From positions 320,001 through 384,000 of the forward strand of contig CAWJIE010000004.1 in NCBI GenBank assembly GCA_963842885.1: 64,000 nt of DNA, given 5' to 3'. The DNA comes from an uncultured Nitrososphaerota archaeon. GTDB taxonomy: Archaea > Thermoproteota > Nitrososphaeria > Conexivisphaerales > DTJL01. Made by a program: the position numbers and the translations under genes. Of this stretch, positions 8,259 to 28,332 are shown piece by piece (position 1 is the first letter of the stretch; every line of letters starts with the position of its first letter). The notes beneath the pieces were generated by a model that was not told where the DNA came from, ran no database searches, and saw only the letters and a program-made list of their open reading frames with translations.

Positions 8259-8290
8259 CGTGAGCATTTTCGGGTCCCGACGTGCGAAAT

Positions 8291-8342: not shown

Positions 8343-8368
8343 TCGCAGGATTCCTCTTGAGGGTGCTG

Positions 8369-10246: not shown

Positions 10247-11127
10247 TTCCTTGTTTGATCCTGTGCCGCCCTCAGCTCACTAATCACGAGGGTCGCCGTC
10301 CGCTCAGCCACATAAGGGAGGTTTCTGAAGAACGAGGTGATATCCATGGCGAACTCCGAATCGTTTGCTTTGACCAACTGGCTCGTTGAAACAGATGGTC
10401 TGGTCTTGTTGTAGGCGCACGTTTGATCGGGGCAGGCTCCGCAGTAGTTCCCTGGAACCGTGATTGCTTTGTCGTTCTTCAATCGCTTGGCTTTCTCTAG
10501 AATGGAGCAAATAGAGAAGCGAGCAAACTCCTCCACTTCCAAGGGCCTGAACATTACGACTTGCCCCGTAATCACCCTGATTAGCATCAAAGGAGAGTCA
10601 TCCCAAAGGTAGCGGTCTATCTGTTCCAGAGGCAATCCCAAGCTGGCCTTGATTTCAAGCCTGATCCTCTGCTGACCGTTCTGCAGTATTCGGCAGGGGG
10701 TTCCGCTCTCTATGACGGCATCGTATATCCCGAAGTCCGCCTTCTCTTCTGTTGCAAGTCGCACATTGAGACCTTCCTCTTTTAGGCGGATCTTCAAGTG
10801 GTCGAGTATCTTGAGGGTGGCGTATTCGCTCTTCTCCCTGTAAACCGAATCGAACTTTTTGTATTCCTCTGGGATTTGGTGACACAGTATGAAGGCAATT
10901 CGTCTCTCACAGATGTCCGAAGTTAGGAGTTTCGTCACGCTCGCGATGCGCTGCCTACCCTTGTGAGTCCACCCATATCTGATGCACAGATCGTTGATCG
11001 TTACACGGAGCTGGTCTTTGCGGGCGGCGAATGCTGTGGAAGCTTCCAAGTCAGGCGGCAACGCGGCAGGTCTCTTCCTACGTTCGGGGTCTGTTCCTAG
11101 GTCATCGTCTGGGATTGGAGTCGTCAT
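10243..11127 (-). CDS. Cas4/AddB-like PD-(D/E)XK nuclease with four-Cys cluster
   Basis: SVTKL...CERR, GIYD, LEIK, QIDRY, PGNYCGACPDQTC. Confidence 0.7.
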   Translation of the reverse strand: MTTPIPDDDLGTDPERRKRPAALPPDLEASTAFAARKDQLRVTINDLCIRYGWTHKGRQRIASVTKLLTSDICERRIAFILCHQIPEEYKKFDSVYREKSEYATLKILDHLKIRLKEEGLNVRLATEEKADFGIYDAVIESGTPCRILQNGQQRIRLEIKASLGLPLEQIDRYLWDDSPLMLIRVITGQVVMFRPLEVEEFARFSICSILEKAKRLKNDKAITVPGNYCGACPDQTCAYNKTRPSVSTSQLVKANDSEFAMDITSFFRNLPYVAERTATLVISELRAAQDQTRK

Positions 11128-11357
11128 TGAAGCTCATCCTCGCCAAGAAAACGTTCAACCGCAAAGACGTGTTCGCACTTGATGCCTCTTTGCAAGAAAT
11201 CGGGGCACTCGCACCACCATTCACCTTTCTGCATCGAGACAGTGTGCCAAGTCGGTCCGCTCTGCGACTTCACTTTGAAGGACTGCGAACGACCTCGAAT
11301 AACAAATCCGATCTGTCTGCAGCCAGCTACGCGTTTCCCATTTTGTGTGTCCATCAT
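11124..11357 (-). CDS. Stand-alone SWIM zinc-finger protein
   Basis: FKVKSQS...WWCECPDF...CEHVFAV. Confidence 0.8.
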   Translation of the reverse strand: MMDTQNGKRVAGCRQIGFVIRGRSQSFKVKSQSGPTWHTVSMQKGEWWCECPDFLQRGIKCEHVFAVERFLGEDELQ

Positions 11358-11486
11358 ACCTTATCTACCTAATCGACCCATACGACTGGGCACTTTATAA
11401 AGGTATAGGTAGATGCGACCTAATAGGTATGGCGCTACATATCAGTGCATAAGACCTATAAGCCACACAGATAACATTCTGACGGG

Positions 11487-11657
11487 ATGGGCCAGAAATC
11501 AGCGGTTGCGCGTGCGAGCAACAAGTCTCCTTCGGTGCGAACTACAATCCCCGAGAAGATAGCCCAGGAACTGAAGCTTGACCCTGGGGACATCTTAGAC
11601 TGGGAGGTCGTGCAGGAGAAGGGTAGGCTAGTTGCTAAAGTTAAGAAGCTGGAATAG
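11487..11657 (+). CDS. AbrB/MazE/SpoVT-family regulator (56 aa, not in ORF track)
   Basis: SVRTTIPEKIAQELKLDPGDILDW; divergent from the SWIM operon. Confidence 0.8.
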   Translation: MGQKSAVARASNKSPSVRTTIPEKIAQELKLDPGDILDWEVVQEKGRLVAKVKKLE

Positions 11658-11672
11658 GCCTGCGACGTAGCC

Positions 11673-12320
11673 ATGGTCACGAGTAGCGCTTCTCACGGAC
11701 GGAAGAGACCATCTCTTAAGGTCAATCCAGAGGATGTGTTGCATTACATCGAACACACGCATCCCAACATACTGTCCGACGAACTGGACCACAAATCGGT
11801 CTCAGAAGCCTATCCTTGGGGCAGCGCTCAGTACAACGAAGCCGCATCCGTATTCCATGCCGCCCAGCGATACCACTTGACACCCGAACAGATGGCAAGA
11901 GTCATGGGTGGAGAGCTGACGGTCAAGCTAAAGCCGAAGAAGGATTGGGATAGGATCTTCTCGCGGTTCATAGCAAAGGACAAGGCAGACTGCGCCAAGG
12001 GTGAGAAGCGATTCTATCAATACCGCCTGAGGCGTGGCGATTGGAAGGCCGTCCCGAAGAACGGAGACGATTTCCTGAAATGGGCAAGAAAGAATGGCTG
12101 GGATCTGTGGACAGCCGTCCCCGAACTGGCCAAGCTGACTATGAGCTATCAAATGAAAGAGATATACAAGCCGATGGGAGGACCTCACTTGCTTCCCACG
12201 GCGATGTCTCCAAATGCAAAAGCGTGGGCTTCGAACTATGGCGTCGGTCTCTTGGCGCACATGATGGTTCACTACGGCATCGTCAAGGACGAGCGTAGCT
12301 TCAAGGACTTCGACACTTAG
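11673..12320 (+). CDS. Hypothetical protein
   Basis: 215-aa ATG-started soluble ORF just downstream of AbrB; no motif recognised. Confidence 0.55.
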   Translation: MVTSSASHGRKRPSLKVNPEDVLHYIEHTHPNILSDELDHKSVSEAYPWGSAQYNEAASVFHAAQRYHLTPEQMARVMGGELTVKLKPKKDWDRIFSRFIAKDKADCAKGEKRFYQYRLRRGDWKAVPKNGDDFLKWARKNGWDLWTAVPELAKLTMSYQMKEIYKPMGGPHLLPTAMSPNAKAWASNYGVGLLAHMMVHYGIVKDERSFKDFDT

Positions 12321-12370
12321 GCACTCTAACTCGCCTGAAATGGGGTCCCGCAAGCTAGCTGAGAAGGTTC

Positions 12371-12463
12371 GGTCAGTAGAGGAGATGTTCTATAACGGTT
12401 ACGGACAGAAAAGTCAGCCCTATCGGGCCCGTCGGGAATCGCGTCCACCTAGGTCCTCTAACA
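12371..12463 (+). repeat. Long inverted repeat, left copy (contains right-arm motif GGGAATCGCGTCCACCTAGGTCCTCTAAC)
   Basis: Aligns with the reverse complement of 21832-21915 apart from a 9-bp indel and scattered substitutions. Confidence 0.85.
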
Positions 12464-12539
12464 AGTTGCGATCGGAGGGCATACGGAAGATGCCGAGTCC
12501 AGAAAGCAGGGAATATAACGGTCTGGCTCATATCATCGC

Positions 12540-13589
12540 GTGATGGCCCAAGGCAGCCCACCTTCGCATGAGGTGTTACCAGCGGGCGATGGCCGCGTCC
12601 GCAAGTGGCTGGGAATTGCAGGGATCTTCCTCGGCATCGCGTGGGCGGCCAGCGATGTCCTTGCGCCCCTCTCGCTGTACTACGGCTACTTCCAGGGGAG
12701 CCTTGCCAGCTACCAGAACGACCTCCAGCCGTTCCTCAGTTTCAACGCGTGGCGGGTATTGACCGCGCCAGCTTCGGCCATGGTGGCGCTGGTAGGGTAC
12801 AGGGTGGCGAAGGGGCGAAGTCCCTCAAGGCCCGTCATCCTCGCCATAGTCCTGCTCTACGGCGGTGGCTTCAGCGTGCATTCGATCCTCACGGCCCTGA
12901 TGACTCCGTTCTTCCTGGGCCCCAACCTCTACCTCCTCCAGGGCGCGTTTCTGGCCGCATGCGGCGCGCTCTTCGTCCTGTACGGCAGGCGGGGCTTCAA
13001 GCTGGCTGGCTTCCTCCTTGCGGAAATGGGGGTCTTTCTCTTCTACATCGGTGGCCTGACCCTTCCGCCAGGCTTTGCAGACTACGGTTGGATGACCGTG
13101 GTCTCGACAGACTTCGCGAAATTCCACATCATCGAGGACCAGTTTCGCCTGTGGGTCTTCTTCACCCAAGACGTGGCACCTGCGTTCCTGGCAGTGGTCG
13201 GCGTCGCACTCGCAGCGGGAGCGATGAGGGCATATGCGTCCCAGAGGGAAGGAGTTGTGCACAAGATCGGAGACTTCCTTCTCTTTGTGTGCGGGTCAGC
13301 CTTCGGCCTCATTCTCATCATCGTCAGTTGCTTCGGTGGCGCCCTGTTCGGCGCCCTGCTGGTCTACTCCATCAACACTCTTGGACTCGGGGCGGCCTCT
13401 CCCTTCGTCCCGATACTCGCGGCTGGGCCGATCGTTTCCGCTGTCCAGGCTGTGGGTGGGGTCTTCGTGATCTTGGCATCCCTTCCCCGACGAAGTGGAA
13501 CTTCGTGGCGGTGGGGGCCTCCACTCGACTGGGCAGCAGGTTCATACGACGGCCAGAGCGGCACGGATAATAACCCAAGTCGCCTATAG
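12540..13589 (+). CDS. Multi-pass membrane protein
   Basis: About 8 hydrophobic segments; GC-rich codon usage. Confidence 0.65.
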   Translation: MMAQGSPPSHEVLPAGDGRVRKWLGIAGIFLGIAWAASDVLAPLSLYYGYFQGSLASYQNDLQPFLSFNAWRVLTAPASAMVALVGYRVAKGRSPSRPVILAIVLLYGGGFSVHSILTALMTPFFLGPNLYLLQGAFLAACGALFVLYGRRGFKLAGFLLAEMGVFLFYIGGLTLPPGFADYGWMTVVSTDFAKFHIIEDQFRLWVFFTQDVAPAFLAVVGVALAAGAMRAYASQREGVVHKIGDFLLFVCGSAFGLILIIVSCFGGALFGALLVYSINTLGLGAASPFVPILAAGPIVSAVQAVGGVFVILASLPRRSGTSWRWGPPLDWAAGSYDGQSGTDNNPSRL

Positions 13590-13599
13590 GAAATCTGCA

Positions 13600-14028
13600 A
13601 TGGCGACTCGAAGGAGGGTGGTGGTTGCGGTTGCTTCGACTCTCGTCGCGGTTGTTGTCGCCGTCGCCGTAGGCTTGTGGCTCTGGCTGGGAGCAGGCGG
13701 AGGCGGCGGGACATTCTCGGTGAGTTACTTGGAGGTGACTTCGCACCCGTCTCTTGGCTACAGCGAGGTGGACTTCACCATCTCCAACAGGAACACCGTT
13801 CCGATGGTCAGCTTGGAGGTCGATGTGAATGGCGAGAGCACGGCCCCCCTCACGATAGGCCCAACCGCCAGTTATCCAATTCCACCTGGGCAGACTGTCA
13901 CAGGTCTAAGCTACTCCCCTATCGTCCGCATCGTGCAGGGCCAGACCTACACTGTCGTTATCACGGCGGGGTTCGGCGACGGAACCAACGCGAGCTTCTC
14001 CTGGACCGTTGTGGCGGGAGGGACCTGA
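13600..14028 (+). CDS. Membrane-anchored pilin/Ig-like surface protein
   Basis: MATRRR plus TM helix, then a beta-rich domain ending QTYTVVITAGFGDG. Confidence 0.6.
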   Translation: MATRRRVVVAVASTLVAVVVAVAVGLWLWLGAGGGGGTFSVSYLEVTSHPSLGYSEVDFTISNRNTVPMVSLEVDVNGESTAPLTIGPTASYPIPPGQTVTGLSYSPIVRIVQGQTYTVVITAGFGDGTNASFSWTVVAGGT

Positions 14029-14103
14029 TGACAGCTCTAGCCTTGAGCAACAGGCTCAAGAGGCAGGGCACGTCGGGAATCGCGTCCACCTAGGTCCTCT
14101 GAC
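14021..14103 (+). repeat. Hairpin site (left arm GGACCTG ... right arm GGGAATCGCGTCCACCTAGGTCC)
   Basis: Inner stem TTGAGC/GCTCAA, outer GGAC/GTCC; overlaps the TGA of the upstream gene. Confidence 0.75.
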
Positions 14104-14152
14104 GGCCACAGAGCGACCACTTAAATCGGACAATCGAGCAAACCATCTCCGA

Positions 14153-15388
14153 ATGTCAGAGGACGTCGCGGCAGGAGAACCATCACAAGCACCCACGCCG
14201 AAAAGAAACTGGGGGGTGTGGGGAGTGTGGTTCGGCGTCGCCCTCTTCTTCTCGGTGGTCATTTTCGCGGAGGGCTACCTGGTCAACCTCATCCTGACCA
14301 CTCCAGGCTCCATGCCCGCTCCAATCCCTTTAGGCTATGCCGTGGCGCTCGGGATATGGGGCATCGTTCTGAATCTGGCGCTGATGCCTTTCGTGGGATA
14401 CTTCGTCCAGCAGAGGGTCAAGCCGTTCGACCCTACGGGGATCTTTGCCATGACCCTAGCTGCTGGGCTGCTGGTCGGGATAGTGCCCACGACAATCGGA
14501 CAGGTCTGCACGACCAATGCATCTACCACATGCAGCTACCAATTCGACGTCGGCACCCTCTGGAGTCAATCGTATTATGTAGTGTCCGCCCTCACAGACG
14601 CTCTCAACGTCTCACTAGTCATGCTGGCAGGGGCGTTCCTTTCGCAGTGGCGCCAGGGTGCGATCACGATGGCCAGCCCCGCCCGAAGTAAGCGCATCCT
14701 CCTCGTAGCTTGGCTGGTCATAGGCTTCGTAGCGGTAGGAGCACAGTCGGTCGCCTACGCTTTCGCCATCATCGGCATCAGCAACCCCTATCTGATCGAT
14801 CTTTCGTCGGGTCTTCCATGGTCGTACGGCAGCTTCGCGAGCCTGCTGGCGGGACCACTCCTCGCCTCCTGCCTCGGTTACTTCCTATACTCTAGGCTTC
14901 GTGAAGTCGGCATGAGGCAGCTGTTTTCGATGGTGGCCCTGGGGGGGATGCTGGCCTTCGTCATCACACAGGCGGCATACGGAATAACACTCGCAAGGGT
15001 GCCATCGGTCGTCTTCGGCACCATCGTCACAGGAATCTTCCCCGCGTGGATCGTCCTAGGCGGCTGCCTTCTCTCCATCCTTGAGAAGGGGCGGACACAT
15101 CCAGGCGTTGACGAGGCTGCTTCGCTCGGCCACCAGGATGCTTCAGGGAGGCTGTCGTACCCGACGCTCGCCGTCGGCTTCGCCGTCACGATTGCATTCT
15201 ACGTCCTTGGCGTATTGAGTCAGACCTCTGTGTTCAATACCTCGTATTCATTTAGGCAGGACGTCGGCGCGAGCGCGTTCTATGGTCTCCTTATCGGGCT
15301 TTTCATTGTTTTTTCTGGGTTTGCGCTGCTTCATTCAGAGCATCAAGCGAAGAAGGCCGTAGTCAGTGATGCCACCGACGTTCCTTGA
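14153..15388 (+). CDS. Multi-pass membrane protein
   Basis: About 10 TM segments; ATG 14153 follows a TTAAAT box. Confidence 0.65.
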   Translation: MSEDVAAGEPSQAPTPKRNWGVWGVWFGVALFFSVVIFAEGYLVNLILTTPGSMPAPIPLGYAVALGIWGIVLNLALMPFVGYFVQQRVKPFDPTGIFAMTLAAGLLVGIVPTTIGQVCTTNASTTCSYQFDVGTLWSQSYYVVSALTDALNVSLVMLAGAFLSQWRQGAITMASPARSKRILLVAWLVIGFVAVGAQSVAYAFAIIGISNPYLIDLSSGLPWSYGSFASLLAGPLLASCLGYFLYSRLREVGMRQLFSMVALGGMLAFVITQAAYGITLARVPSVVFGTIVTGIFPAWIVLGGCLLSILEKGRTHPGVDEAASLGHQDASGRLSYPTLAVGFAVTIAFYVLGVLSQTSVFNTSYSFRQDVGASAFYGLLIGLFIVFSGFALLHSEHQAKKAVVSDATDVP

Positions 15389-15464
15389 CCTTCTCTTCCA
15401 TGTCGCCTGTATTTGGATTGGATGCATATGCCCCCAGACCCTTTGCATGACGACTCTCCCTCGC

Positions 15465-15556
15465 GGGCTTGGACCTGCGAATGGGCTGGCTCGGTTTCAA
15501 GTTTGCCCAACCTGTAGTTTAGGCAAACAAAGGAAGCCCTTTCGTGGGTGGTCTTG
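15465..15556 (+). repeat. Hairpin site (left arm GGGCTTGGACCTGCGAATGGGCTG)
   Basis: Stems GTTTGCC/GGCAAAC, GGGCT/AGCCC, CGAA/TTCG, GACC/GGTC. Confidence 0.7.
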
Positions 15557-15631
15557 AAGTCTGCTCCTTAGGGAAACCAAGTCTTGTTAAAGTTCTGCTG
15601 GAATCGGTTTTAGGCTGTGGTTTTCCTAGGT

Positions 15632-15720
15632 GGGCATGGACCTGCGAATGGGCTGCTCGTTCGTCTTTGTGTTATTGAAAACAATAGGTTAATTGAACAA
15701 GGGCGAGGCACCTTACGGCC
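15632..15720 (+). repeat. Hairpin site; ~85-bp direct repeat with 16208-16300
   Basis: GGACCTGCGAATGGGCTG...TATTGAAA...TAGGTTAATTGAAC...GAGGCA is shared; overlaps the stop of 15713-16243. Confidence 0.75.
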
Positions 15721-16243
15721 AGACTGCCTGACAAAGGTAACTGTTCCCAGCTGCTGTTATTACTGCGATGTCATAGCTCTGTCCCGAACTGACGTTCAGG
15801 GTCGACCTCCCAATCAATAGCTCTCCTTCGGTCCCAGATGCCAGCATGAAAGCGCCCGCTGAGGTCTTATTGAAACTCCCTTCAGGGGTTATGCTGCTCA
15901 GCGGGACCGACGCGTTGTTAAACAAGACCTGGGTAACGGTCGCTGAATAAGGACAATTGTTGAAAGTGGTGATGATGAGGGTGCTGTTCGAAGCGTCCGT
16001 CGATGTGGCGAGAACGAGTTTTTCCGTGTGTTCAGGGGGTATGTAGAGACCAGACCCAAAAGACGCTATAAGTCCGAAGAAGGCCACGAACCCCACCAAG
16101 AAGATGGCTATGACAATGTACCCCTTTTTGCCTGAACTATTTTGGGCCGTACAGGAGACTGAGGTATTGCGAAGATATGAATGCTGTGGCACAGGCGCTG
16201 AGAACGTGGGCTCGGACCTGCGAAATGGGCTGATCTCGTTCAT
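15713..16243 (-). CDS. Pilin-like surface protein
   Basis: KKG followed by a hydrophobic helix (class III signal-like); C-terminal YDIAVITAAGNSY. Confidence 0.6.
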   Translation of the reverse strand: MNEISPFRRSEPTFSAPVPQHSYLRNTSVSCTAQNSSGKKGYIVIAIFLVGFVAFFGLIASFGSGLYIPPEHTEKLVLATSTDASNSTLIITTFNNCPYSATVTQVLFNNASVPLSSITPEGSFNKTSAGAFMLASGTEGELLIGRSTLNVSSGQSYDIAVITAAGNSYLCQAVWP

Positions 16244-16305
16244 CTTTGTGCTATTGAAATCAGTAGGTTAATTGAACGATAGGGGAGGCAACTTAGGTCC
16301 CCGAC
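16208..16305 (+). repeat. Hairpin site
   Basis: GGACCT/AGGTCC, CGTTCA/TGAACG and CTATTGA/TCAGTAG nested stems. Confidence 0.75.
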
Positions 16306-16368
16306 ATTTGGCAGGCCAGAGTTCAACGTAGATGATTCAATCTGCTGGACGCTGCCAGTTGCAGGAGA

Positions 16369-17151
16369 CTAGCCTGATTGCCTCGGCAAGAGAACACGAA
16401 TCAAGTTCATGACGGCAAAGACGACCGCCGCCCAGAATGCAATATCTACCGACAGTCCTAACACGTCAATGGAAAACCACGGCTGAGACTGGAGAGGTCC
16501 AAAGGAGTAGAACTGATGGGCCCAAGCAAATGGCCACCCGACATCCATGTGGGAGAAGGTCCAGCTCCCAATTGCTGAAATGAATGTGAGAGCAAAACCA
16601 GCCGAAATGCTGGAAATGACCGAGGCGCCCCTTTCCGATGCGAAAGCCATCGTGATTGAGGCCAGCCCGACCACGACTCCGATGATGGCGAGGATGGGAA
16701 GACTGTAAGGAAACAGAGGACAGAATGCTGCACCACTTGAGCCGCAGTACGTCGTGCCTACGGTTGCAGGTGGCAACGTGGCTACATCGGCTACGATGCA
16801 AAGGATTCCGACGGCAATGCAGGTGTTCCTCAGCGTCTTGTGGACCTTGGTGTCAGTGGTATCCTTCGTCGCCGCCACCTTCACCATCTTCACGAAGGCC
16901 AGAGCCTCCTTCCCGTCGTCCGTCAGGAAATAGGCCCCGTCCGAACCGCTCCTGACCAAGCCGCCCAGCTTGCTCAAGTGGAATTGAAGGTGCCCACTAC
17001 TCTCAAGCCCTACCCTTCGCCTCAGTTCCGAGAAGCCAAGCGGGCCGTCTTCGAGAACGTGAAGTATCCTGATCCTGATTGGGTGGCCAAGGGCATCAAA
17101 GAGTTCCGCCTTTGACTTGTCGAAGTCAGTGTTGTCAGGCTCGTCAGGCAT
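16369..17151 (-). CDS. ArsR-like HTH protein with C-terminal TM domain
   Basis: LFDALGHPIRIRIL...GFSEL...SSGHLQFHLSKL...YFLTDDG plus about 4 TM helices. Confidence 0.8.
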   Translation of the reverse strand: MPDEPDNTDFDKSKAELFDALGHPIRIRILHVLEDGPLGFSELRRRVGLESSGHLQFHLSKLGGLVRSGSDGAYFLTDDGKEALAFVKMVKVAATKDTTDTKVHKTLRNTCIAVGILCIVADVATLPPATVGTTYCGSSGAAFCPLFPYSLPILAIIGVVVGLASITMAFASERGASVISSISAGFALTFISAIGSWTFSHMDVGWPFAWAHQFYSFGPLQSQPWFSIDVLGLSVDIAFWAAVVFAVMNLIRVLLPRQSG

Positions 17152-17255
17152 AGCTTACGGTAAGTTGACTCGGAGATATAATGCCACGTTTATGGACAGG
17201 GAGGCGGTCATTCCCTCCCAGTCGGTCTACGAAACTGGCATGGCTACTCTAGGTC

Positions 17256-17301
17256 GTGGGCTTGGACCTGCGAGGACTCTATATAGAGCGCGTCTGCCCA
17301 T
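17256..17301 (+). repeat. Compact hairpin site
   Basis: GTGGGC-TTG-GAC-CT-GCG-AGGA-CTCTA-TA-TAGAG-CGC-GTC-T-GCCCAT. Confidence 0.75.
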
Positions 17302-17370
17302 GCCTCCTATTGAAGTTCAGAGAAGGCAGCTTAATATCGGCCGCGCTCCCTTCGAGCATCAGTCTCGTCC

Positions 17371-17742
17371 TTGTGGGCGTCACTGACCGCAGCGAACTAT
17401 TTCCCCGAGATCGTCTCATTTCTAGTCCTGTTCACGATGGCGCTGTACTACGTCTACAGGACGGCGATACTCACCGCACTCGGAGACCGCCGCCCCTCCA
17501 GCACGACGGTGCTGCTTCTCGGGGGGCGCCCGATACGCCTGGCGGCGCTCGTCGAGCCTGTTCTAGTCGTGGCTGGAAGCCTCTTGGTGTCTTACCTTGT
17601 GATATATCTCATCACCGCAGGCTTCTTTCTGGGATACCAACTCATCATTGCGGGCTTGGGGACGATGGCCCTGGGGCTCGTCCTAGTTGCCATTACCAAG
17701 CTGCGAAGGCACGCTTGGCTTGAAAGCGATCGACGAACATAG
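17371..17742 (+). CDS. Small membrane protein
   Basis: 3 hydrophobic segments; its stop is directly followed by the repeat. Confidence 0.55.
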   Translation: MWASLTAANYFPEIVSFLVLFTMALYYVYRTAILTALGDRRPSSTTVLLLGGRPIRLAALVEPVLVVAGSLLVSYLVIYLITAGFFLGYQLIIAGLGTMALGLVLVAITKLRRHAWLESDRRT

Positions 17743-17743
17743 G

Positions 17744-17781
17744 GGGAACCACGTCCACCTAGGCCCTCCGATGAGTTGCGA
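17744..17781 (+). repeat. Right-arm repeat copy
   Basis: GGGAACCACGTCCACCTAGGCCCTC...AGTTGCGA. Confidence 0.8.
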
Positions 17782-17888
17782 GTATAGAATGTTGTATACG
17801 GCCTTGGGCACATTCTGTGAAGGTTACGTACAAAGGAGCCAAGCTTGGTTGTCGGCTTCGGACACGAGGAGTTATTTCGCAGCTCGGG

Positions 17889-18584
17889 TCAGGACTTCCT
17901 TAGCCAGATTTCACGTCCGATGCCTTCGTCTACAGTTTCACATGTTCTGAAGTTGGACTTGGCGACAATGTCACAAATCTGGTCCTTCGTATAAGACGAT
18001 TTCAACAGACCCCTGAAAGTGAACCTCGTGACGAACGAGTTGACCAAGCCTAGCCGCATGTTGTTGACATATTCGTCAAGCTCAGCCTTGGTGGCTTCCT
18101 TCCGCATGTCTATGATTACCGCCTTTCCTCTGGGCCCGAGTACCCTGAAGACCTCGTCGAGTACTCTGGTGGGATCAGGGAAGTTCTTGAAAGCCGAAGT
18201 GCAGATGGCGAAGTCGAAAGTGCCATCTGAGAAGGGCATGTGCGCCGCGTCGCCTTGGTGGAACTCGACCTTTACGTTCGCCTCCCTAGCATTCTTCGAT
18301 GCGATGTCCACAAAGGTCTTGCTTATGTCGAGCCCCACGACCCTGTAAGCGCCAAGCCGAGCCAACTCGATGGACAGGTAGCCTGGGCCTGGGGCGACCT
18401 CTAGCACATTACTGCCTTCGGAAAGCTGGCCGCTCGCCAACTTGGCCCACGACGTGTACTGCTGCATGTCATTCCGCTGGGTCCTCGCATACCATTTGGC
18501 GATTAGGCCCTCCATAGCCACGCCCTTGTACGCTTTCCGTTTCTCCGAGGGTGAAGGTGGATTTGGCGTCTCGGCGCTGTCCAT
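17889..18584 (-). CDS. Class I SAM-dependent methyltransferase (UbiE-like)
   Basis: VLEVAPGPG, GLDIS, GDAAHMPFSDGTFD, RVLGPRG. Confidence 0.88.
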   Translation of the reverse strand: MDSAETPNPPSPSEKRKAYKGVAMEGLIAKWYARTQRNDMQQYTSWAKLASGQLSEGSNVLEVAPGPGYLSIELARLGAYRVVGLDISKTFVDIASKNAREANVKVEFHQGDAAHMPFSDGTFDFAICTSAFKNFPDPTRVLDEVFRVLGPRGKAVIIDMRKEATKAELDEYVNNMRLGLVNSFVTRFTFRGLLKSSYTKDQICDIVAKSNFRTCETVDEGIGREIWLRKS

Positions 18585-18710
18585 ACTCCCTTCCGAAGTC
18601 GGACAAGGTTAGCGGTTATATAGAGACTTTGGCCTCGGCAGTCGCCTCGTTCAAGAACCACACTTGAGACTGCCGCCCGTCTCGTAGTGCAACTGCGTTG
18701 CGAGCCTAGA

Positions 18711-18740
18711 GGGAAGCGCGTCCACCTAGGTCCTTGACGG
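18711..18740 (+). repeat. Right-arm repeat copy
   Basis: GGGAAGCGCGTCCACCTAGGTCCTTGACGG. Confidence 0.8.
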
Positions 18741-18854
18741 CACTCAACGATAGACGTAGCCGATCCGCCTGTCTGTCATCAGTTCTCTTTCGATTTCCCA
18801 GTGTCCTCGCCTTTGCCCACGCTTGCTCCATCGACGACCCACCCACCGCCTCGA

Positions 18855-20054
18855 CTAAACCATTCTTATGTTCGGAATGGCCCTCTCGAACTGCTTCAAG
18901 GTCATTAAGAAGGGCAATCCAGTGGCGTCACCGCCATGTTCCAGTTCGTATTCGTAGATGCTCTTAATGTAGCTTGGCAGCCTCAACCAACCCGCCCCAT
19001 CGGTAATGTAGATGAGCCTGAGGTTACGCTTGTCACAATCGTCGTAAAGCTCCTTGAAGTGAATTACTACTTCCTTTATCTTCGACATCGACGTCGTGAA
19101 ATAGTTCGTCTCCACGGCGTAGACTACCTTGCTGCCCTTGGCAAGTAGGAAGTCGAACTTCTTGTCGCCACCTCTCCAGCGTTTCTGTTCTACGAACGAC
19201 CATCTCGAAGGGTCGGCTGGTATCAATCCAGAACCGAGGCGCTCTTCTACTTCTTCAAGATCTCGGGCGCCATTCATCGACTCGTGGACGAATCCTGAGG
19301 CGAGGAGTATCTGGCGTACCCGTGTTTCCCCATAGCTCCCTCTTTCTGCCTTCACTGACTCGACGTTGGTTGTGCGCATACTCCGCTTTAGGGCGCTAAG
19401 TATGACGCTTTCCTTGATGAGCAAGAGCAAGTCTTCTTCGAACAAAAGAAATTCTGCTATCCTCTTGGCTGAAGCTGGATCTGTGGTTATCCTAGATTTC
19501 CACAATTCCCAGCACGAGGCCTCATCGTCCAAATAGGAATCGATGGTACGTTTCATGCATGCCAGCTTCTGAATCTCGTCAAGAGGCTTGATTTCAGGCT
19601 GGATTCCCGTGTAGCTCGTCCACGCCTTCGATCTGATTGCGGAACGGTACTGGTCACCGAAACGGGGATCCTCACTCATCAGTTTGTCATAGTAGGCGAG
19701 GCTATCCAACTGATCAGGGTCGAAGAGGAGTTTTATGAGTTCCGAACTTGTAAACCTTAGCTGTCTGTGCAGATGCATGAATACTAAGAAGTAGCGGGGA
19801 TCTTCCCTTATGAGGTCGGCAACCCTAGCAACGAGTTCATCAGCCTTTGCAGAGACGGCGGCCAAATCCTGAACCCGCCGAGCAAGTGCCCAGAACTTGT
19901 CTTCCCCGCCGAACACGTCAAGCAAGAATCTGTTCAACACAGGCTTGTTGGGCTCAGTAGTCTGAGGACCAGCTTTGGGGAGAAGACGCCCTCGTTCGCC
20001 GATATCGAGAGTGGCGTAGAACTCAGTAACTCGCCTATCTGTCTCCGAACTCAA
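18855..20054 (-). CDS. DpnII-family type II restriction endonuclease with N-terminal extension
   Basis: KKFDF...ETNYFTTSMSKIKEV...ITDGAGW; TTG 20054 chosen as start, downstream of a TATA-like box. Confidence 0.75.
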   Translation of the reverse strand: MSSETDRRVTEFYATLDIGERGRLLPKAGPQTTEPNKPVLNRFLLDVFGGEDKFWALARRVQDLAAVSAKADELVARVADLIREDPRYFLVFMHLHRQLRFTSSELIKLLFDPDQLDSLAYYDKLMSEDPRFGDQYRSAIRSKAWTSYTGIQPEIKPLDEIQKLACMKRTIDSYLDDEASCWELWKSRITTDPASAKRIAEFLLFEEDLLLLIKESVILSALKRSMRTTNVESVKAERGSYGETRVRQILLASGFVHESMNGARDLEEVEERLGSGLIPADPSRWSFVEQKRWRGGDKKFDFLLAKGSKVVYAVETNYFTTSMSKIKEVVIHFKELYDDCDKRNLRLIYITDGAGWLRLPSYIKSIYEYELEHGGDATGLPFLMTLKQFERAIPNIRMV

Positions 20055-20178
20055 CCCTACTGAAAGACTTCTCGTACCCAATGCTATATAAGTTGGCAGC
20101 CTTGGAGTTCGGCGTAGCATGGCGCCGAAGGCTGCGACCACAAATAGGGCACTAAATCGGCCCAGATCTTACAAGAGC

Positions 20179-21129
20179 ATGGAGCTTGTTACAGAGAAGG
20201 ACTACCTGCGCTTTGTTGGTCAGCATAGATCTGTCATGATTGGCGACGTCGAGATTGCGATAGGCCAACCATGGAACATCGGTAGCTATGCTCCGCCAGC
20301 CAGCTATGTTCCAGAAAGCTTCACAGTGTGGAGTTTCCCCGATAGAGGAGACTGGGCAACACACACGGGCAAGTATCGAGGTAATTGGAGTCCTTACATC
20401 CCGAGGAATCTGATTCTCAAGTACACGCAGGCTGGAGATACCGTACTCGATCAGATGGCGGGCTCAGGGACAACTCTGGTGGAGTGCAAGCTGCTTCAGC
20501 GCAACGGAATCGGAGTTGACATCAACCCAGACGCAGTCATGCTTGTCCAAGATCGGCTCAACTTCGCATACAATCCGTTGTTAACAGGAAGTGAACCATA
20601 TGTGGCGCCCAAGATCGAGACATATGTGGGAGATGCCCGCAACCTAGACAAGATACCTTCGGATAGCATCGACCTGATAGCAACTCATCCTCCATATGCT
20701 TTCATAATCAAGTACACAAAACAGAAGGTCGAGGGTGACCTCTCAAGCACGAGGCTTGATGAATACATCAACTCTATGAAGAGAGTTGCGAGCGAAAGTT
20801 TCAGGGTCCTCAAGCCAGGAAAGAATTGCGGAGTGCTGATAGGCGATTCCCGTGCTCACCAGCACTACATCCCGATTTCAATCGGCGTGCTAGAGGCCTT
20901 TAGAGATGCAGGCTTTATCTTGAGGGAAGACATCATAAAGCTCCAGCATCATACAAAAACGACCAGAGACAAATGGAAAGGGAGATATGACTTCTACAAG
21001 ATTGCCCACGAGCATCTGTTTGTCTTCAGGAAGCCCCTCTCCGATGAGAAGGTCGCGATGTTTCGTGATTCAGTTCGGTGGCCCAATGAAGGGTTTCTTG
21101 ATCAACTCGTGATCCCAGAAGGAGATTAG
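20179..21129 (+). CDS. Amino (N4-C/N6-A) DNA methyltransferase
   Basis: WSFPDRGDWATH, LDQMAGSGTT (motif I) before THPPY (motif IV), HEHLFVFRK; divergent from the endonuclease. Confidence 0.88.
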   Translation: MELVTEKDYLRFVGQHRSVMIGDVEIAIGQPWNIGSYAPPASYVPESFTVWSFPDRGDWATHTGKYRGNWSPYIPRNLILKYTQAGDTVLDQMAGSGTTLVECKLLQRNGIGVDINPDAVMLVQDRLNFAYNPLLTGSEPYVAPKIETYVGDARNLDKIPSDSIDLIATHPPYAFIIKYTKQKVEGDLSSTRLDEYINSMKRVASESFRVLKPGKNCGVLIGDSRAHQHYIPISIGVLEAFRDAGFILREDIIKLQHHTKTTRDKWKGRYDFYKIAHEHLFVFRKPLSDEKVAMFRDSVRWPNEGFLDQLVIPEGD

Positions 21130-21206
21130 GTAGATCTTCCACCTCATACTCATGCATGGTCAGCTTCTGATACCGTGACTGCCAGCCCATTCTTCGCAGG
21201 TCCAAG
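21127..21206 (-). repeat. Hairpin site in inverted orientation
   Basis: Minus strand reads CTTGGACCTGCGAAGAATGGGCTGG...TCAG/CTGA...GGAAGATCTACCTA; overlaps the methyltransferase stop. Confidence 0.65.
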
Positions 21207-21412
21207 TGTCGTTATATCCTTCCTCCCTCATTCATGGCGTGAAGCCCCCTAATTACAAGGAGCAGCCAGCCCGCCACGGCCCCATGTGCCGAGACTGTGA
21301 AGCCTATGAGCCTGTCGACAGCACCTGCAAGAGATATTCCGCATCGGTCGATCCCAATTACGAATGTGATAGTTGGAAGAGAAACCCCAACCTTCCGATA
21401 AAGGCGGTCTAG
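21206..21412 (+). CDS. Small HiPIP-like four-Cys protein
   Basis: NY...CRDCEAY...TCKRY...VDPNYECDSW. Confidence 0.55.
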   Translation: MSLYPSSLIHGVKPPNYKEQPARHGPMCRDCEAYEPVDSTCKRYSASVDPNYECDSWKRNPNLPIKAV

Positions 21413-21413
21413 C

Positions 21414-21433
21414 CTCGCAAGTCCAAGCCCGCG
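21414..21433 (-). repeat. Left-arm repeat copy, inverted
   Basis: Minus strand CGCGGGCTTGGACTTGCGAG. Confidence 0.65.
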
Positions 21434-21464
21434 CCCTAATGTGTCTATCAACTATCTCGGGATG

Positions 21465-21698
21465 TTATTCGCCATCCGATGCCCGTCGAGGGAGCCGAAG
21501 CCTGTACTTGGGTGAGAGCATTTCCGCTATCGTGCCAATCAGGTAGCCCACGAACGCGCCTCCGATTATTCCAATCGGATAGGCGAAGTACAACAACACC
21601 GAGGCAGCAGGGCTTCTGTAGTTCTCGACGTAGATGACGGCCCAGCCTACTCCAACCAATATGCCCAGCAGCTCAAGAGCTGTGCGCGTCCTCATCAA
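21465..21698 (-). CDS. Small two-TM membrane protein
   Basis: 77 aa with two hydrophobic helices. Confidence 0.5.
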   Translation of the reverse strand: MMRTRTALELLGILVGVGWAVIYVENYRSPAASVLLYFAYPIGIIGGAFVGYLIGTIAEMLSPKYRLRLPRRASDGE

Positions 21699-21831
21699 TT
21701 GTGAAGTACCCTGTCAGAGTAATTAACCTTAGTCTGTGCTACATCTTTGTTCGCAGCTTCAACTACAGGGTCAGCTTCAATTTGATTTCAACATGTTAGA
21801 GATAATCAATGAATTGAGAGACTTGTTTGCC

Positions 21832-21915
21832 TGTTAGAGGACCTAGGTGGATGTGGTTCCCGACGGATCCGACTTTTCTGTCCGTAACCGTCATAGAATA
21901 TCTCCTTTGCTGGCC
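21832..21915 (-). repeat. Long inverted repeat, right copy
   Basis: Minus strand GGAGATATTCTATGACGGTTACGGACAGAAAAGTC...GTCGGGAACCACATCCACCTAGGTCCTCTAACA. Confidence 0.85.
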
Positions 21916-22012
21916 AAGTTCTATTTCAGAGCTAAGGGTCTTAGCAACTGATGATGTCTGATGCGACGCGAAGCGAGAAAGGTGAAATTGAACCCAACAT
22001 GATTGGTCATAG

Positions 22013-22027
22013 TCCCACCCCCCGCAC
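22013..22027 (+). repeat. attR core
   Basis: TCCCACCCCCCGCAC duplicate of the tRNA-Leu 3' end. Confidence 0.85.
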
Positions 22028-22488
22028 ATATTGTAGAATTGAGTAGCATGCGTCCTGCCCAGACAGTTTACCGCGTCCGCCCGCTGCAGTTCTTTTGCTG
22101 AGAGATAGTGTAGAACGTAACTCTAGTCAAAGATGGCTGATCATGCCGTTTAGTAGTCATATGGCGACCTGGGGAGTGATGCGACCAAGGAAGCAAAGCA
22201 CAGGAATGTTTAATGCTGTCAGAGTGTCCTTTGGCGCGTTAGACGCCAAGCCGGTCAAAATCGGTAGGTCGATTGTCAATGGTTTGTAGTCTAGGCATCG
22301 GGCCTCGGCTTTGGGATTTCTCAAGAGAGTTCTATTAGGACCGTTTTCGTAAATGGTTACACCGTCGGATACTTGAATTTTGATGACATCTATCTGGCGA
22401 AGGAAGACAAAATCATCAGGCCGAAAGCGGAATATGTTAGGTTGAGAAACCGGGAATGTTTATTTTTGAGTGGGCGACAAAGTCTGAC

Positions 22489-23133
22489 CTAGGTTCGCTT
22501 ATGGTTGAGTTTGGACGCTTTAAGTGCTTCGAATTCCTCTGGAGTATCAACATCGAGCAAGGAAAGGAGAGAAAAATCAAATTCGGCAAGGTTTTCGGTG
22601 GATATGAACAAGGTTTTCTTGCATTTTTTAGCGATTTGCCAGAGCTCCAACGTCTTGCTTTTCCAAAGATCCTCGAGCACTGGCAAAATAGTCTTTCTAT
22701 TGTAGACGGCGTGTATTGCTTCGAGCTTGCCATCTGGCCATAAAGGTATCACTGAATCGAACTCCTTAGACTTGGAAATCATTTCTATCATCACGTTCGG
22801 GTTCATGAAAGGTGAATCGACTGGGAATACGGCTACGTGTTCTTCAGGAATTTGCCGGAAGGAAGACAAGAGGGCCAAAAGGACCGAGCGAGGACTATCG
22901 TATGAATCTGTCAAATAAGTTGTTCCGGGTGGAAGCATAGGCCTTAGACGGCTAGTTCCTCTACTGTCATGAGTTGATACATAGATGTGGTCGGCGAATC
23001 CGTTAGCTGCGTCGTAGGCCCAGGTGATAAGAGGTTTAGATTCTATTATTAGAGTGGCCTTTTCTTTGCCCATGCGTGAGGAAAGGCCTCCTGCTAGTAT
23101 CAAGGCGGCAGAAGCTCCATGTTCCGATTGCAA
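22489..23133 (-). CDS. mobA: Molybdenum cofactor guanylyltransferase
   Basis: ILAGGLSSRMGKEKA, PVDSPF, EAIHAVY, DVDTPEE. Confidence 0.85.
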   Translation of the reverse strand: MQSEHGASAALILAGGLSSRMGKEKATLIIESKPLITWAYDAANGFADHIYVSTHDSRGTSRLRPMLPPGTTYLTDSYDSPRSVLLALLSSFRQIPEEHVAVFPVDSPFMNPNVMIEMISKSKEFDSVIPLWPDGKLEAIHAVYNRKTILPVLEDLWKSKTLELWQIAKKCKKTLFISTENLAEFDFSLLSLLDVDTPEEFEALKASKLNHKRT

Positions 23134-23208: not shown

Positions 23209-24639
23209 ATGGTGAGCCGTAAAGAGGATGAGGTTGCAATAGTAAGGAAGATGCTTGAGCTAGGCTACGAAGTCGAACTCGATGCGATTGGGGAGCTGCT
23301 TGATCAAGAAGGCGGACCTGAGCCAGTGCTTCGCATACTCGAAACTATAATGAAGATTAAGGCCAAGCAGCGTGGGAAGCATTTTGTTATTGGCTCTAAG
23401 GACGTTAAACCGTTTCTGCATGCCAATGCCGATTTGGGTGTATTGGAAAGAATCGTGCCGGACTTTAAGGTCATCTTCGATCCGACTGGAAGCATCAGCC
23501 CTACGGCTGACACATCTGGATATGTAGAGATGTTCAGGAGCAGGATTGAGAAGATGTCTTCCATCATACGAAACCGACCTGATTTCTTTCAAATTGAGAA
23601 ACTGAATGCCATCAAGACGCCAATTTCGGGCAAAAAGGTGTTAGCGAAAGTTGTAGGACTTGTCGTGTCAAAGAAGGTTTCTGAGGATTACACATCGTTA
23701 ACTTTGGAGGATGACAGTGGATACTTACGGTTGATGTGTACTGACGACGCGATGCGAAAGGTGGATGAGGTTTTGATTGACGAATTCGTCTTGGCGGAAG
23801 TCGAATCGTTACCTCGAGGGTATTATGCTAGGAACATCTATCATCCAGATTTGCCTGAAAAGTCTAAACGAACATCGGACGAAAGGGTTTATGCCGTTTT
23901 CGTCTCGGATCTTCATGTGGGGTCGGCGGATTTTGACGAGGCTGCCTTTCTAAAGATGATTAGTTGGCTGAATGGTGATTTCGGTGAGCTAGAAATCGTT
24001 TCTCGAGTCGGGTATTTGATTCTGAATGGAGACCTCGTTCAGAATCCGTTGGCTCGCGACGGTCATTTGAATGAGATGGGTGTGGAATCATATTACGACA
24101 TGCTCGCGGATTACTTGAGCAAAATCAAGAGACCGGTGAAGATCTTCGTCGTGCCGGGGGAAATGGATGCTACACGAATGGCGTTGCCTCAGCCTGCTAT
24201 CATCAGGAAATATGCGAGGAGGCTCTACGAAATGAAAGGCGTGTTGATGTTGGGTAACCCATCTATGATAAGCCTCAACGGCGTGATAGTCTTGCTCTAT
24301 CATGGGCAGAGCTTGGATGATGTCTTTAGACAGCTACAGTCCACCTCTTCGAGCAGGCCCTGTACTGGAATCCGTGCCTTGTTGAGAGCCAGACACATGG
24401 CTCCTACATATGGTGGATTGACTCCGTTGGCTCCTGAAAGAGAAGATCTTTTGATTGTAGATCCGGTTCCTGACATCGTACATTGTGGTCATGTTGGCAT
24501 TCCGGATGAAGATGTCTATAGAGGGACGTTGTTACTGTCTACTCCTTCCTGGGTTGTTGACATGAAATCGTCTGCTGGTAGCCAAGGTAAGGCAGCGCTG
24601 GTTGATTTATCGACCTTTGATGTTTTGTGGCGAGCATGA
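23209..24639 (+). CDS. polB: DNA polymerase D small subunit DP1, exonuclease predicted inactive
   Basis: OB fold (LEDDSG), SDLHVGS, ALPQP, NPSMI, YHG, RHMAPTYGG; but GDLVQ, PGEMD and GHVG replace GDxVD, PGNHD and GHxH. Confidence 0.88.
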   Translation: MVSRKEDEVAIVRKMLELGYEVELDAIGELLDQEGGPEPVLRILETIMKIKAKQRGKHFVIGSKDVKPFLHANADLGVLERIVPDFKVIFDPTGSISPTADTSGYVEMFRSRIEKMSSIIRNRPDFFQIEKLNAIKTPISGKKVLAKVVGLVVSKKVSEDYTSLTLEDDSGYLRLMCTDDAMRKVDEVLIDEFVLAEVESLPRGYYARNIYHPDLPEKSKRTSDERVYAVFVSDLHVGSADFDEAAFLKMISWLNGDFGELEIVSRVGYLILNGDLVQNPLARDGHLNEMGVESYYDMLADYLSKIKRPVKIFVVPGEMDATRMALPQPAIIRKYARRLYEMKGVLMLGNPSMISLNGVIVLLYHGQSLDDVFRQLQSTSSSRPCTGIRALLRARHMAPTYGGLTPLAPEREDLLIVDPVPDIVHCGHVGIPDEDVYRGTLLLSTPSWVVDMKSSAGSQGKAALVDLSTFDVLWRA

Positions 24640-24641
24640 CC

Positions 24642-25844: not shown

Positions 25845-26384
25845 GGGCCCCCGCCCCAATATTTCCACTGGAAAATATATAACCTGATGGTTTGTTGAGA
25901 GTTAAAAGAAAACTATACCGCTTTTGTTTACTCTAATGAATACATATACTATCATGTCAATACTAATTGGCTAACGACCTAGACCAAATTCATATAGCAT
26001 CATCCAACGTTATACTGATTACCACGAAGAAATCTTCGACAATCTCCACTGGCAATCCATGGGTGCCCCCGTCCAGCCACACCACGGACATCCGATCCCT
26101 TGGCAATCTGTTAACTTTTAAACATCATTCGACCAACAGAGCCGATTCCCTGACCCCTTTGTTTCCACTGAACTCATTCCACACCACAGATTTGTTAACA
26201 TGCTCAAGTCGACCCCAGTGCGTCCACTGGGGCTCATAGAACTAACTAATCTTCTTGTTCTGCCAAGCGACAAGTTAACTTCGGTAAACAACCATCAAAA
26301 ACACCTGCCGTCTCATAACGAATCGAACAAGATTCACAAACCGGTTAACAGGTCATCACTGTTAACTGTTATATTCGCTAAGCA
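25845..26384. other. Replication origin (oriC)
   Basis: ORBs on the minus strand: TTCCAGTGGAAATATTGGGG (~25854-25873) and GTTCAGTGGAAACAAAGGGG (~26154-26173); partial TCCACTGG at ~26045 and ~26223; AT-rich tract 25870-25970; upstream of cdc6. Confidence 0.85.
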
Positions 26385-26840: not shown

Positions 26841-26879
26841 GAAACCCTCCAACGACAAAAAAGGCATTAAATGTAGATA

Positions 26880-28329: not shown

Positions 28330-28332
28330 ACT

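Follow-up and report, generated by a model that had tools for sequence, protein, structure and literature searches.

The window analysed here is a 64,000-nucleotide (nt) stretch of DNA from the genome of an uncultured Nitrososphaerota archaeon (assembly GCA_963842885.1, contig CAWJIE010000004.1), and the system in question is an array of small gene units at 12.4-21.9 kb of that window (hereafter, the flagged region) that are separated by copies of two short sites, denoted L and R. Both sites are real, conserved, intergenic, and oriented, and they separate units of unrelated cargo in which membrane proteins are enriched. The same units are found beside other neighbours in sister genomes, and homology is interrupted at or beside the sites. 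A first-pass annotation, made from the sequence alone, had described unrelated units of one or two genes between conserved short sites; this description holds, and the recurrence of units with other neighbours extends to sequences from peat.

The genome that holds the window (G000; 2.03 Mb, with the window on contig C4) was analysed within a genus set of five genomes (G000-G004) and together with 36 further genomes from outside the genus, for 41 genomes searched in all. The sister genomes are fragmented metagenome-assembled genomes (MAGs) that are 59-95% complete. Genes were called with a crude caller of our own, supplemented in the window by a list of open reading frames (ORFs).

Gene units and sites at the locus

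The flagged region is bounded by an inverted repeat of ~93 nt (12371-12463 and 21832-21915). Its left arm (+ strand) comprises a copy of a 36-nt repeat termed M3, which contains ACGGTTACGGAC (about 12380-12415), and site R1 (12425-12462), whereas its right arm (- strand) comprises site R5 (21832-21870) and a second copy of M3 (21871-21906), such that M3 adjoins R at both ends. Eight of the ten internal gene boundaries bear L or R, in agreement with the earlier statement that most boundaries carry a motif, and R is present at both outer ends. The remaining two boundaries each fall within a unit of two genes (12540-14030 and a restriction-modification pair).

The window was searched for L with a 16-mer and for R with a 23-mer, each at ≤3 mismatches, and the position of each match is given below with its site; R1 and R5 were matched at 12434 and 21839, respectively. 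The left arm is followed by unit a (12540-14030, + strand), which encodes a 349-amino-acid (aa) membrane protein (12540-13589) and a 143-aa protein (13602-14030), neither assigned to a Pfam family. Site R2 (14066-14103, +; match at 14075) is 95% identical to R1 and precedes unit b (14113-15458, +), a 459-aa multi-pass membrane protein with its own conserved TATA-like promoter box. Two L sites on the + strand come next, namely L1 (15459-15481; match at 15465), which is followed by a class B tail (15489-15545), and L2 (15626-15648; match at 15632), which is followed by a class A tail (15656-15700), so that an empty unit is present between L sites at 15465-15632. Unit c (15713-16243, -) encodes a 176-aa pilin-like or membrane protein with no Pfam family and is overlapped by L3 (16202-16224, +; match at 16208), which again has a class A tail (16235-16277). 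Beyond it are unit d (16369-17151, -), a winged helix-turn-helix (wHTH; DUF7347/HTH_20) membrane protein, and L4 (17252-17274, +; match at 17258; nhmmer score 23.8 bits).

The second half of the region continues with unit e (17371-17742, +; 123-aa membrane protein, no Pfam family), R3 (17735-17772, +; match at 17744), unit f (17889-18584, -), an S-adenosylmethionine-dependent methyltransferase (PF08241, E = 1.3e-24), and R4 (18702-18739, +; match at 18711). Unit g (18855-21129, mixed strands) is the restriction-modification pair, with a DpnII-like endonuclease (18855-20141, -; PF04556, E = 1.7e-15) and an N6/N4 DNA methylase (20119-21129, +; PF01555, E = 8.7e-24). The last two L sites are inverted: L5 (21193-21215, -; match at 21194) has a diverged 5' part, with three mismatches and 14.5 bits, and L6 (21414-21436, -; match at 21415) has one mismatch and 16.4 bits. 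They are accompanied by unit h (21212-21451, -), a small ORF of 79 aa as listed with no Pfam family, and unit i (21465-21698, -), a 77-aa membrane protein. A scan of 11500-22500 against Rfam returned no relevant family.

In total, the L 16-mer has seven matches in the window compared with 0.87 expected, and none of 100 shuffled sequences reached seven; the seventh match, at 27704 with three mismatches, is weak. The R 23-mer has five matches compared with 0 expected, and all five copies in G000 lie within the flagged region. The other six L matches and the five R matches confirm positions at which the motifs had been annotated by inspection. Two further copies noted at that stage were not recovered, namely a partial L at 14021 (by mismatch search or nhmmer profile) and a degenerate R at 16283 (at ≤3 mismatches).

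The array appears to be cargo that occupies the right half of an element of ~18.7 kb (about 3336-22027) whose integration site is a tRNA-Leu-like gene. This gene (3205-3335, +), which probably contains non-canonical introns, aligns over its 5' 24 nt and 3' 44 nt with tRNA-Leu(CAG) at 43886-43973 and shares a 29-nt exact repeat of the 3' end of that tRNA; neither ARAGORN nor Rfam (3100-3450) calls a tRNA at 3205-3335. Its insertions are between the D-arm and T-arm regions, and a possible CAA anticodon loop is present. A 15-nt att repeat, TCCCACCCCCCGCAC, has three exact copies in the window (3321, 22013, and 43957; 0 expected), of which the first is the 3' end of the tRNA-Leu-like gene (left att copy, 3321-3335), the second the putative right end of the element (22013-22027, +), and the third part of the true tRNA-Leu. 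A tyrosine integrase gene (3310-4515, +; PF00589, 31.2 bits, E = 2.2e-7) adjoins the left copy, and an IS6/IS240-type DDE transposase gene with a SWIM zinc finger lies farther inside (9128-10246, -; PF13610, E = 1.1e-22). Homology to sister chromosomes begins at 22519-22996. The repeats of a tRNA 3' end, the adjoining integrase, and the point at which sister homology resumes together lead us to read 3336-22027 as an integrated element, and it has the direct repeat of a tRNA 3' end at both ends and the integrase at one end that characterise tRNA-integrating elements. An empty site for this element was not shown in the sister genomes.

Conservation, distribution, and folding of the sites

An alignment of 132 copies from three genomes defines L as a 23-nt, non-palindromic, oriented block, GGACGTGGGCTTGGACCTGCGAA, in which information content is high across ~23 nt and zero on either side. 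The core contains a tandem direct repeat (GGACGTG-N5-GGACCTG, 12-nt period), and 3' of the block is a short A/G run of variable length that is often followed by TGGGCTG. Orthologous units are only 70-95% identical, yet the L block is sharply kept. Most L copies have a unique upstream flank, and about 42 of 70 have a unique downstream one.

Copies of L were abundant in four of the five genomes of the genus and close to absent outside it. The whole genome of G000 contains ~70 copies at ≤2 mismatches of the 15-nt core. At ≤1 mismatch, 61, 24, 61, 49, and 1 copies were identified in G000, G001, G002, G003, and G004, respectively, and 0-1 in each of the remaining genomes among the 41 searched. A pattern tolerating two variable positions recovered 45, 14, 44, 26, and 3 copies in the same five genomes, with none in the 36 genomes outside the genus and none in controls; the three copies in G004 have variant cores. 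Among species-representative genomes, several copies of an L 17-mer were present only in MAGs titled Conexivisphaerales or Nitrososphaerota archaeon, and other records had single copies at about chance level. Viral contigs contained just one unrelated coding site matching the 16-mer, repeated across overlapping records. An nhmmer profile built from 134 L copies yielded no convincing extra copies (every additional match had E > 0.5), and the sole match in a literature search for an L 12-mer was a human quantitative PCR primer, a chance match.

L sites are intergenic (57 of 61 fall outside called genes), and their orientation is independent of the genes beside them, with same/opposite counts of 32/29 for upstream and 25/34 for downstream genes. 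Gene orientation around the sites is therefore mixed, as had been reported for the window, and many L sites sit between convergent gene ends. Polarity is nevertheless uniform within a region; on contig C2, for example, 19 consecutive L copies are on the - strand and the next seven are on the + strand. Each genome has many small arrays of L inside hypervariable islands, with large arrays in G000 on contigs C2, C3, C8, and C10. Replication direction was considered and rejected as the cause of this polarity, because modules on the - strand at ~130 kb and on the + strand at ~335 kb belong to the same GC-skew arm of C4. The first-pass annotation had held that a genome-wide scatter resembling that of miniature inverted-repeat transposable elements (MITEs) would speak against a cassette system. 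L resembles MITEs in its many copies only: conservation is limited to ~23 nt, and no terminal inverted repeats, target duplications, or inverted partner were detected, nor was any case seen of L inserted into otherwise collinear DNA.

A recurrent tail follows the L core in 24 of 70 copies, 16 of which form one cluster (classes A and C merged) and eight of which form class B. As modules, A, B, and C number 25, 14, and 32 copies in G000, respectively, and they always share the strand of local L copies. The core of the class A tail (window 15664-15697) is TTATTGAAAACAATAG, flanked by GGTTAAT-like direct repeats; it is abundant in peat metagenomes, where its flanks are variable on both sides.

R (~38 nt) is a separate second site family and not a partner arm of L, and it is rarer and more diverged. 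One sister genome contains a few R-like copies that are 90-96% identical over 28-32 nt, and a copy resembling R4 in G003 (contig C60) is 96% identical over 28 nt. Half-copies of R on contigs C9 of G000 and C27 of G003 diverge from a point inside the site. An R 17-mer matched seven metagenome contigs, all by chance and without homology. M3 was identified at three further places in G000 (C9:53-89, C5:17158-17190, and C3:382513-382545), one of which is 330 nt from a tRNA-Gly gene, and was found in no viral contig. M3 is found near tRNA genes or near the att ends of what are putatively integrated elements, and so resembles a feature of their ends; its reading frames are not conserved, which indicates that it is non-coding.

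It had been proposed that L and R are the two arms of one hairpin resembling an integron attC site, and that such sites fold as single-stranded DNA (ssDNA) and are recombined by an integron-type integrase. We consider this reading largely refuted and highly improbable. L occurs about 60-70 times genome-wide without R. The complementarity between the arms, which was recognised by eye, has a score of 8 compared with a shuffle mean of 5.9, and 11.6% of 2000 shuffles were at least as good. Three of the four sites proposed to fold as ssDNA do so modestly better than shuffled sequences (z-scores of -2.0/-2.8 for 14015-14100, -2.0/-1.8 for 15460-15560, and -2.0/-0.2 for 17250-17305); the fourth, 16203-16305, does not (-0.1/+0.3). 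Genome-wide, pairing of the L core with downstream sequence (mean -24.7 kcal/mol) was similar to that with upstream (-25.4 kcal/mol) and shuffled (-24.3 kcal/mol) sequence, with a mean z of -0.15 and z < -2 at five of 69 sites. The two strongest pairings are those of window copies at 15466 (z = -3.7) and 16209 (z = -3.2), which explains the impression gained from the window, and these, together with the modest folding and the genuinely array-like, unrelated cargo, are what speaks for an attC-like site. Covariation is likewise lacking: 22 copies of the class B tail from three genomes have no consensus structure (RNAalifold, -0.15 kcal/mol), and a 7-bp stem within it pairs in 88% of cells, with one compensatory change, the same as in shuffles, and with one pair broken in nine of the 22 copies. 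Furthermore, the RYYYAAC/GTTRRRY ends of attC are absent, most arrays have no integrase beside them, genes are in mixed orientation, and units have their own promoter-like TATA boxes.

Exchange of units and candidate recombination junctions

Units of the flagged region were found in other arrangements in relatives. Comparisons of arrays drew on 20 fetched array loci from two sister genomes, which represent part of their arrays. Unit b is 87% identical (window 14203-15486) to a segment of G001 contig C14 and 74% identical (14113-15088) to one of G002 contig C96, each time in a different context, and its paralogue on G000 contig C2 is again in another context. Homology between the window and G001 covers the 3' untranslated region and the L core and ends directly after ...CTGCGAA; upstream of the unit b homolog is an L core in both G001 and G002, and R2 in the window. 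Unit c (within window 15705-16279) is 77% identical to G002:C51:4003-4587 and has a paralogous unit on G000 contig C2 (98998-99590). Window 16900-17272, which takes in the 5' end of unit d, is 75% identical to a segment of G003 contig C22, and this 5' end, ~108 nt, and the L core are kept both there and on G000 contig C2. Outside the window, segments of G000 at C2:26692-28864 and C8:4315-4848 match G002 contigs C112 (88%) and C69, respectively, from core to core. Individual G002 contigs combine units that are found on four or five different contigs of G000.

Homology endpoints are enriched at the sites. Among 60 non-redundant endpoints within 3 kb of a core, in comparisons of G000 with the 20 loci, 14 are ≤20 nt from the core, compared with a mean of 1.05 and a maximum of five in 300 draws of random positions from the same space. 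The outcome that had been named as counting against a cassette system, in which the motifs never mark breakpoints, is thus clearly contradicted. Three public peat metagenomes, sampled at a 0.06 share, contain relatives of the window strain and not the strain itself, and contigs of these relatives are 90-99% alike to the window. They depart from it at R, at positions 12424 (two runs), 14094 (two runs), 14113, and 17744; those spanning unit a end at 12424 and 14094, and one contig at R3 has 689 unlike bases followed by a match from 17744 onward. Peat contigs also leave the window sequence at the L core. Apparent joints in the peat contigs are other copies of L or of a tail that map piecewise and are not deletions.

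Even an apparently isolated L falls within this pattern. One such copy on C4 is inside a 5.5-kb variable island whose flanks are kept in all five genomes, and the island measures 2.9, 10.5, and 9.4 kb in three sister genomes, with differing content. Units bounded by L or R range from 0.2 to 6 kb and are without integrases. The majority of array genes are singletons (90 of 114), and 48 of 114 have a crudely predicted transmembrane (TM) segment, compared with 465 of 2154 genes genome-wide. Among 66 array genes that were scanned, 63 Pfam families were matched, including transporters, sensors, a mechanosensitive channel, a glycosyltransferase, exosortase-like proteins, and acetyltransferases.

We infer that a block of 23 nt that is nearly invariant in >130 copies, amid DNA diverged to 70-90%, must be read by a sequence-specific factor. 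Breakpoints at the edge of L, together with an array polarity that holds regardless of gene direction, make a duplex recombination site the most economical reading. Collectively, these observations suggest, tentatively and with a likelihood we put a little short of even, that L and R are duplex recombination junctions for the exchange of gene units and that they are read by a sequence-specific factor encoded in trans. Such a factor would recognise L and R as double-stranded DNA, and units flanked by sites would be excised, inserted, or replaced at other copies of the site. Each island would thereby keep one polarity while becoming a different mosaic in each genome.

Candidate enzymes for L were sought among the recombinases of the genus. 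The tyrosine integrase and a Cas4/DDE module of the window had been put forward as the recombinase; neither the integrase nor the DDE transposase tracks the sites, and the supposed Cas4 gene (10243-11127) has no Pfam match at E ≤ 0.01. Tyrosine integrase genes (PF00589) in G000 were located at C5:9966, C5:11288, C3:398951, and window 3310-4515, and none adjoins the large arrays. Paralogues of the window integrase were identified in G000 and G002; G003 yielded weak matches only, and searches of G001 and G004 found none, and the family was rejected as the L enzyme because this distribution does not track L. An integrase in a G003 array was rejected since it has no orthologues. For the IS240-type DDE transposase, G000 has three full copies, which have no terminal repeats in common and no site resembling L or R in their vicinity, and this enzyme was likewise rejected for L or R. 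The only Y1 transposase gene (Y1_Tnp, C5:213342) was also rejected, there being no copy of L, A, B, C, or M3 within 2 kb of it. L is non-palindromic and the Y1 gene is not flanked by any of these repeats, and neither therefore conforms to repetitive extragenic palindromes (REPs) and their associated tyrosine transposases (RAYTs). A second IS240-type DDE gene is contained in a 2.9-kb segment (G000:C5:414114-417027) with 61-nt inverted repeats that are 93% identical, and the adjoining 0.7 kb has a homolog in G003, a unit with L cores on either side.

The only recombinase found inside arrays is an IS110-family element of ~1.3 kb, with copies in G000 at C3:189224-190519, C7:18996-20294, and C3:1403-2709, outside the window. 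It has the domains that define the family (DEDD_Tnp_IS110, PF01548, 98 bits; Transposase_20, PF02371, 88.8 bits). All three copies occupy the same position of the 60-nt module C, beside L, in one orientation, and with identical junction sequences. The element has subterminal inverted repeats, ATGAAAGACGCCC, and about 30 empty copies of module C are present in G000. Module C may be either the target of IS110 or a derivative of its joined ends. The element was not found in G001 or G003, both of which are rich in L, which leads us to regard it as a site-specific guest that does not drive the arrays.

The families that do recur in arrays of G000, G002, and G003 are a wHTH/TM protein, an ABC ATPase, and a cNMP-binding protein. 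The first of these raises the alternative that L is a regulatory or architectural protein-binding site, for example an operator for the wHTH (DUF7347) membrane proteins or a site for silencing foreign DNA, with its role at breakpoints a by-product. The 12-nt tandem repeat within L and the recurrence of the family in arrays of three genomes are consistent with this, as is the placement of L 52-133 nt upstream of the start codon, in divergent orientation, in six of nine wHTH/TM members. A precedent is offered by the Neisseria NTS repeat, the cognate protein of which was found via its association with the repeat (PMC11893778; this and the other papers cited below are drawn on in part). An operator is not readily reconciled with an orientation unrelated to flanking genes or with the many L sites between convergent gene ends, and only two of the seven wHTH paralogues in G000 lie in arrays. 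We regard a binding site of this kind as improbable.

Several findings weigh against L and R as recombination junctions. The core sites of classical tyrosine or serine recombinases are dyad-symmetric, and L is not. No recombinase tracks L or R, no recombinase or nuclease family recurs in arrays, and some genomes rich in L yielded no DDE, Y1, or IS110 genes. Most homology endpoints (46 of 60) are >20 nt from a core. In one recent transfer (95% identity), the stop codon is where shared sequence ends; G000 continues with 34 nt and then L, and the sister genome with unrelated sequence that lacks L, which indicates that a given gene may or may not have L and its flank beside it. In G000, two copies of one gene family face opposite ways with respect to the neighbouring L. 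Neither an excised circle nor an empty site nor a polymorphism within one strain was seen; the public runs contain relatives only. Lastly, the companion modules occur without L (14 of 25 copies of A, 7 of 14 of B, and 28 of 32 of C), so that the system also looks like a mosaic of independent intergenic repeats.

This last observation leads to the main alternative, that L, R, A, B, and C are selfish or structural intergenic mosaic repeats that spread themselves, and that units are shuffled passively by homologous recombination between copies, for instance after uptake of foreign DNA, with no dedicated recombinase. The many copies genome-wide and their several small clusters would be expected of such repeats, as would linkers that are mosaics of modules with and without L, the variable presence of L and its flank beside the same gene, the want of a linked recombinase, and the many L copies at contig ends, where repeats tend to fall. 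IS110 inside module C would match the opportunistic insertions in Neisseria arrays (PMC1797815). Other features are harder to accommodate. L is a ~23-nt block with mostly unique flanks and without terminal inverted repeats or target duplications, it is not palindromic as REP and the Neisseria repeat dRS3 are, and no modules lie near the one Y1 gene. Within islands, every module type keeps a strict polarity, conservation limited to 23 nt needs a sequence-specific reader, and no insertion of L into collinear DNA was seen. On balance, passive shuffling of mosaic repeats seems to us somewhat unlikely, but worth keeping in view.

A further reading is that archaea have an as yet undescribed system for gene capture, integron-like in function and different in mechanism, in which L serves as the recombination site and R provides a second specificity. 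In such a system, a possibly RNA-guided or otherwise unconventional recombinase encoded in trans would act on an asymmetric duplex site of ~23 nt and insert, excise, and exchange promoter-bearing units at many chromosomal and mobile-element arrays. We judge this proposal unlikely.

Other features of the window lie outside the array. Genes for the PolD small subunit, Orc1/Cdc6, and the PolD large subunit are grouped at 23209-32088, a stretch of ~2.4 kb without a called gene follows orc1/cdc6 (gap 25869-28332), and along C4 the cumulative GC skew changes direction at 340-350 kb (window ~20-30 kb). A replication origin is likely to be situated here, beside the integrated element. Toward the end of the window, ARAGORN calls a minus-strand tRNA (61628-61717) of undefined identity whose anticodon has four bases (gtgg), and a 42-nt repeat (90%; 60472-60513 and 61624-61665) ties it to a place 1.15 kb away; the two may represent a pair of tRNAs with introns. 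About 1.5 kb is enclosed by an inverted repeat of 44 nt (75% complementary; 47998-48041 and 49568-49611), which possibly delimits a small mobile element.

Significance and comparison with known systems

How the flexible genome of archaea is built and renewed is poorly known. Here, a whole genus of non-ammonia-oxidising peat and soil Nitrososphaeria keeps much of its membrane-related accessory pool in units joined by a 23-nt site and reshuffled between species. If a dedicated enzyme reads L, this would represent a new site-specific recombination system, the short asymmetric target of which might be useful as a tool. If there is no dedicated enzyme, the arrays would be the first archaeal counterpart of the Neisseria repeat arrays that direct where recombination exchanges genes. 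Either way, L and R provide a sequence handle with which flexible islands in uncultured archaea can be found, delimited, and compared, and from which primers for circles and junctions can be designed.

Short conserved intergenic sequences also flank exchanged small gene modules in the PeSL cassettes of T4-type phages and the pdif modules of Acinetobacter plasmids. PeSLs are promoter-terminator units co-oriented with genes, and pdif sites, which alternate in orientation, are Xer sites with dyad symmetry. L corresponds to neither type.

To our knowledge, the cassette platforms reported so far in archaea are canonical integrons only. The L arrays share with integrons, including the archaeal ones (Ghaly et al., bioRxiv 10.1101/2022.02.06.479319), unrelated small units, a conserved bounding site, one polarity per array, and content that varies among relatives. 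They differ in that L lacks a folded attC structure (no R''/L''-L'/R' symmetry and no covariation) and arrays lack an adjacent IntI, and in that genes are in mixed orientation, have their own promoters, and are distributed over many small arrays as opposed to one platform. Thus, of four features diagnostic of integrons, only one was found, namely site-bounded units that differ between relatives and move as units. IS1111 elements insert site-specifically into integron attC sites. The ~1.3-kb IS110 element resembles them in its fixed position in module C, beside L and in one orientation; it differs in that it targets, or derives from, module C and not L. Group IIC-attC introns likewise insert site-specifically into integron attC sites (PMC3001079).

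Thaumarchaeal elements integrated at tRNA genes have a direct repeat of the tRNA 3' end and an adjoining tyrosine integrase, as does the element that carries the flagged region, and tyrosine-recombinase elements bounded by att sites are known to occur in arrays (Krupovic et al. 2019, PMC6563490). The units bounded by L and R differ from such elements in being 0.2-6 kb in length, in lacking integrases, and in having sites unrelated to the tRNA att repeat. No description of L-like arrays was found in the passages of that survey consulted here.

The closest known analogue appears to be the arrays of Neisseria intergenic mosaic elements (NIMEs), in which dRS3 repeats separate RS elements and of which NTS is the oriented form (PMC1797815, PMC11893778). 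In both cases, short conserved repeats of ~20-28 nt separate variable short modules, are genus-specific, and are rarely located inside genes. In both, arrays cluster beside variable genes, many of them for membrane or surface proteins, recombination end-points fall within arrays, and the arrays collect insertion sequences and are targeted by the recombinase of a mobile element. The site itself differs, since the 20-bp dRS3 and NTS form a palindrome or hairpin that is cut as ssDNA by SsnA, whereas L is non-palindromic and shows no folding signal. NIME arrays also consist mostly of non-coding DNA, in contrast to the complete gene units that the sites separate here, and the present host is archaeal. 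For NIMEs, two mechanisms have been proposed, a specific recombinase or homologous recombination (PMC1797815, PMC11893778).

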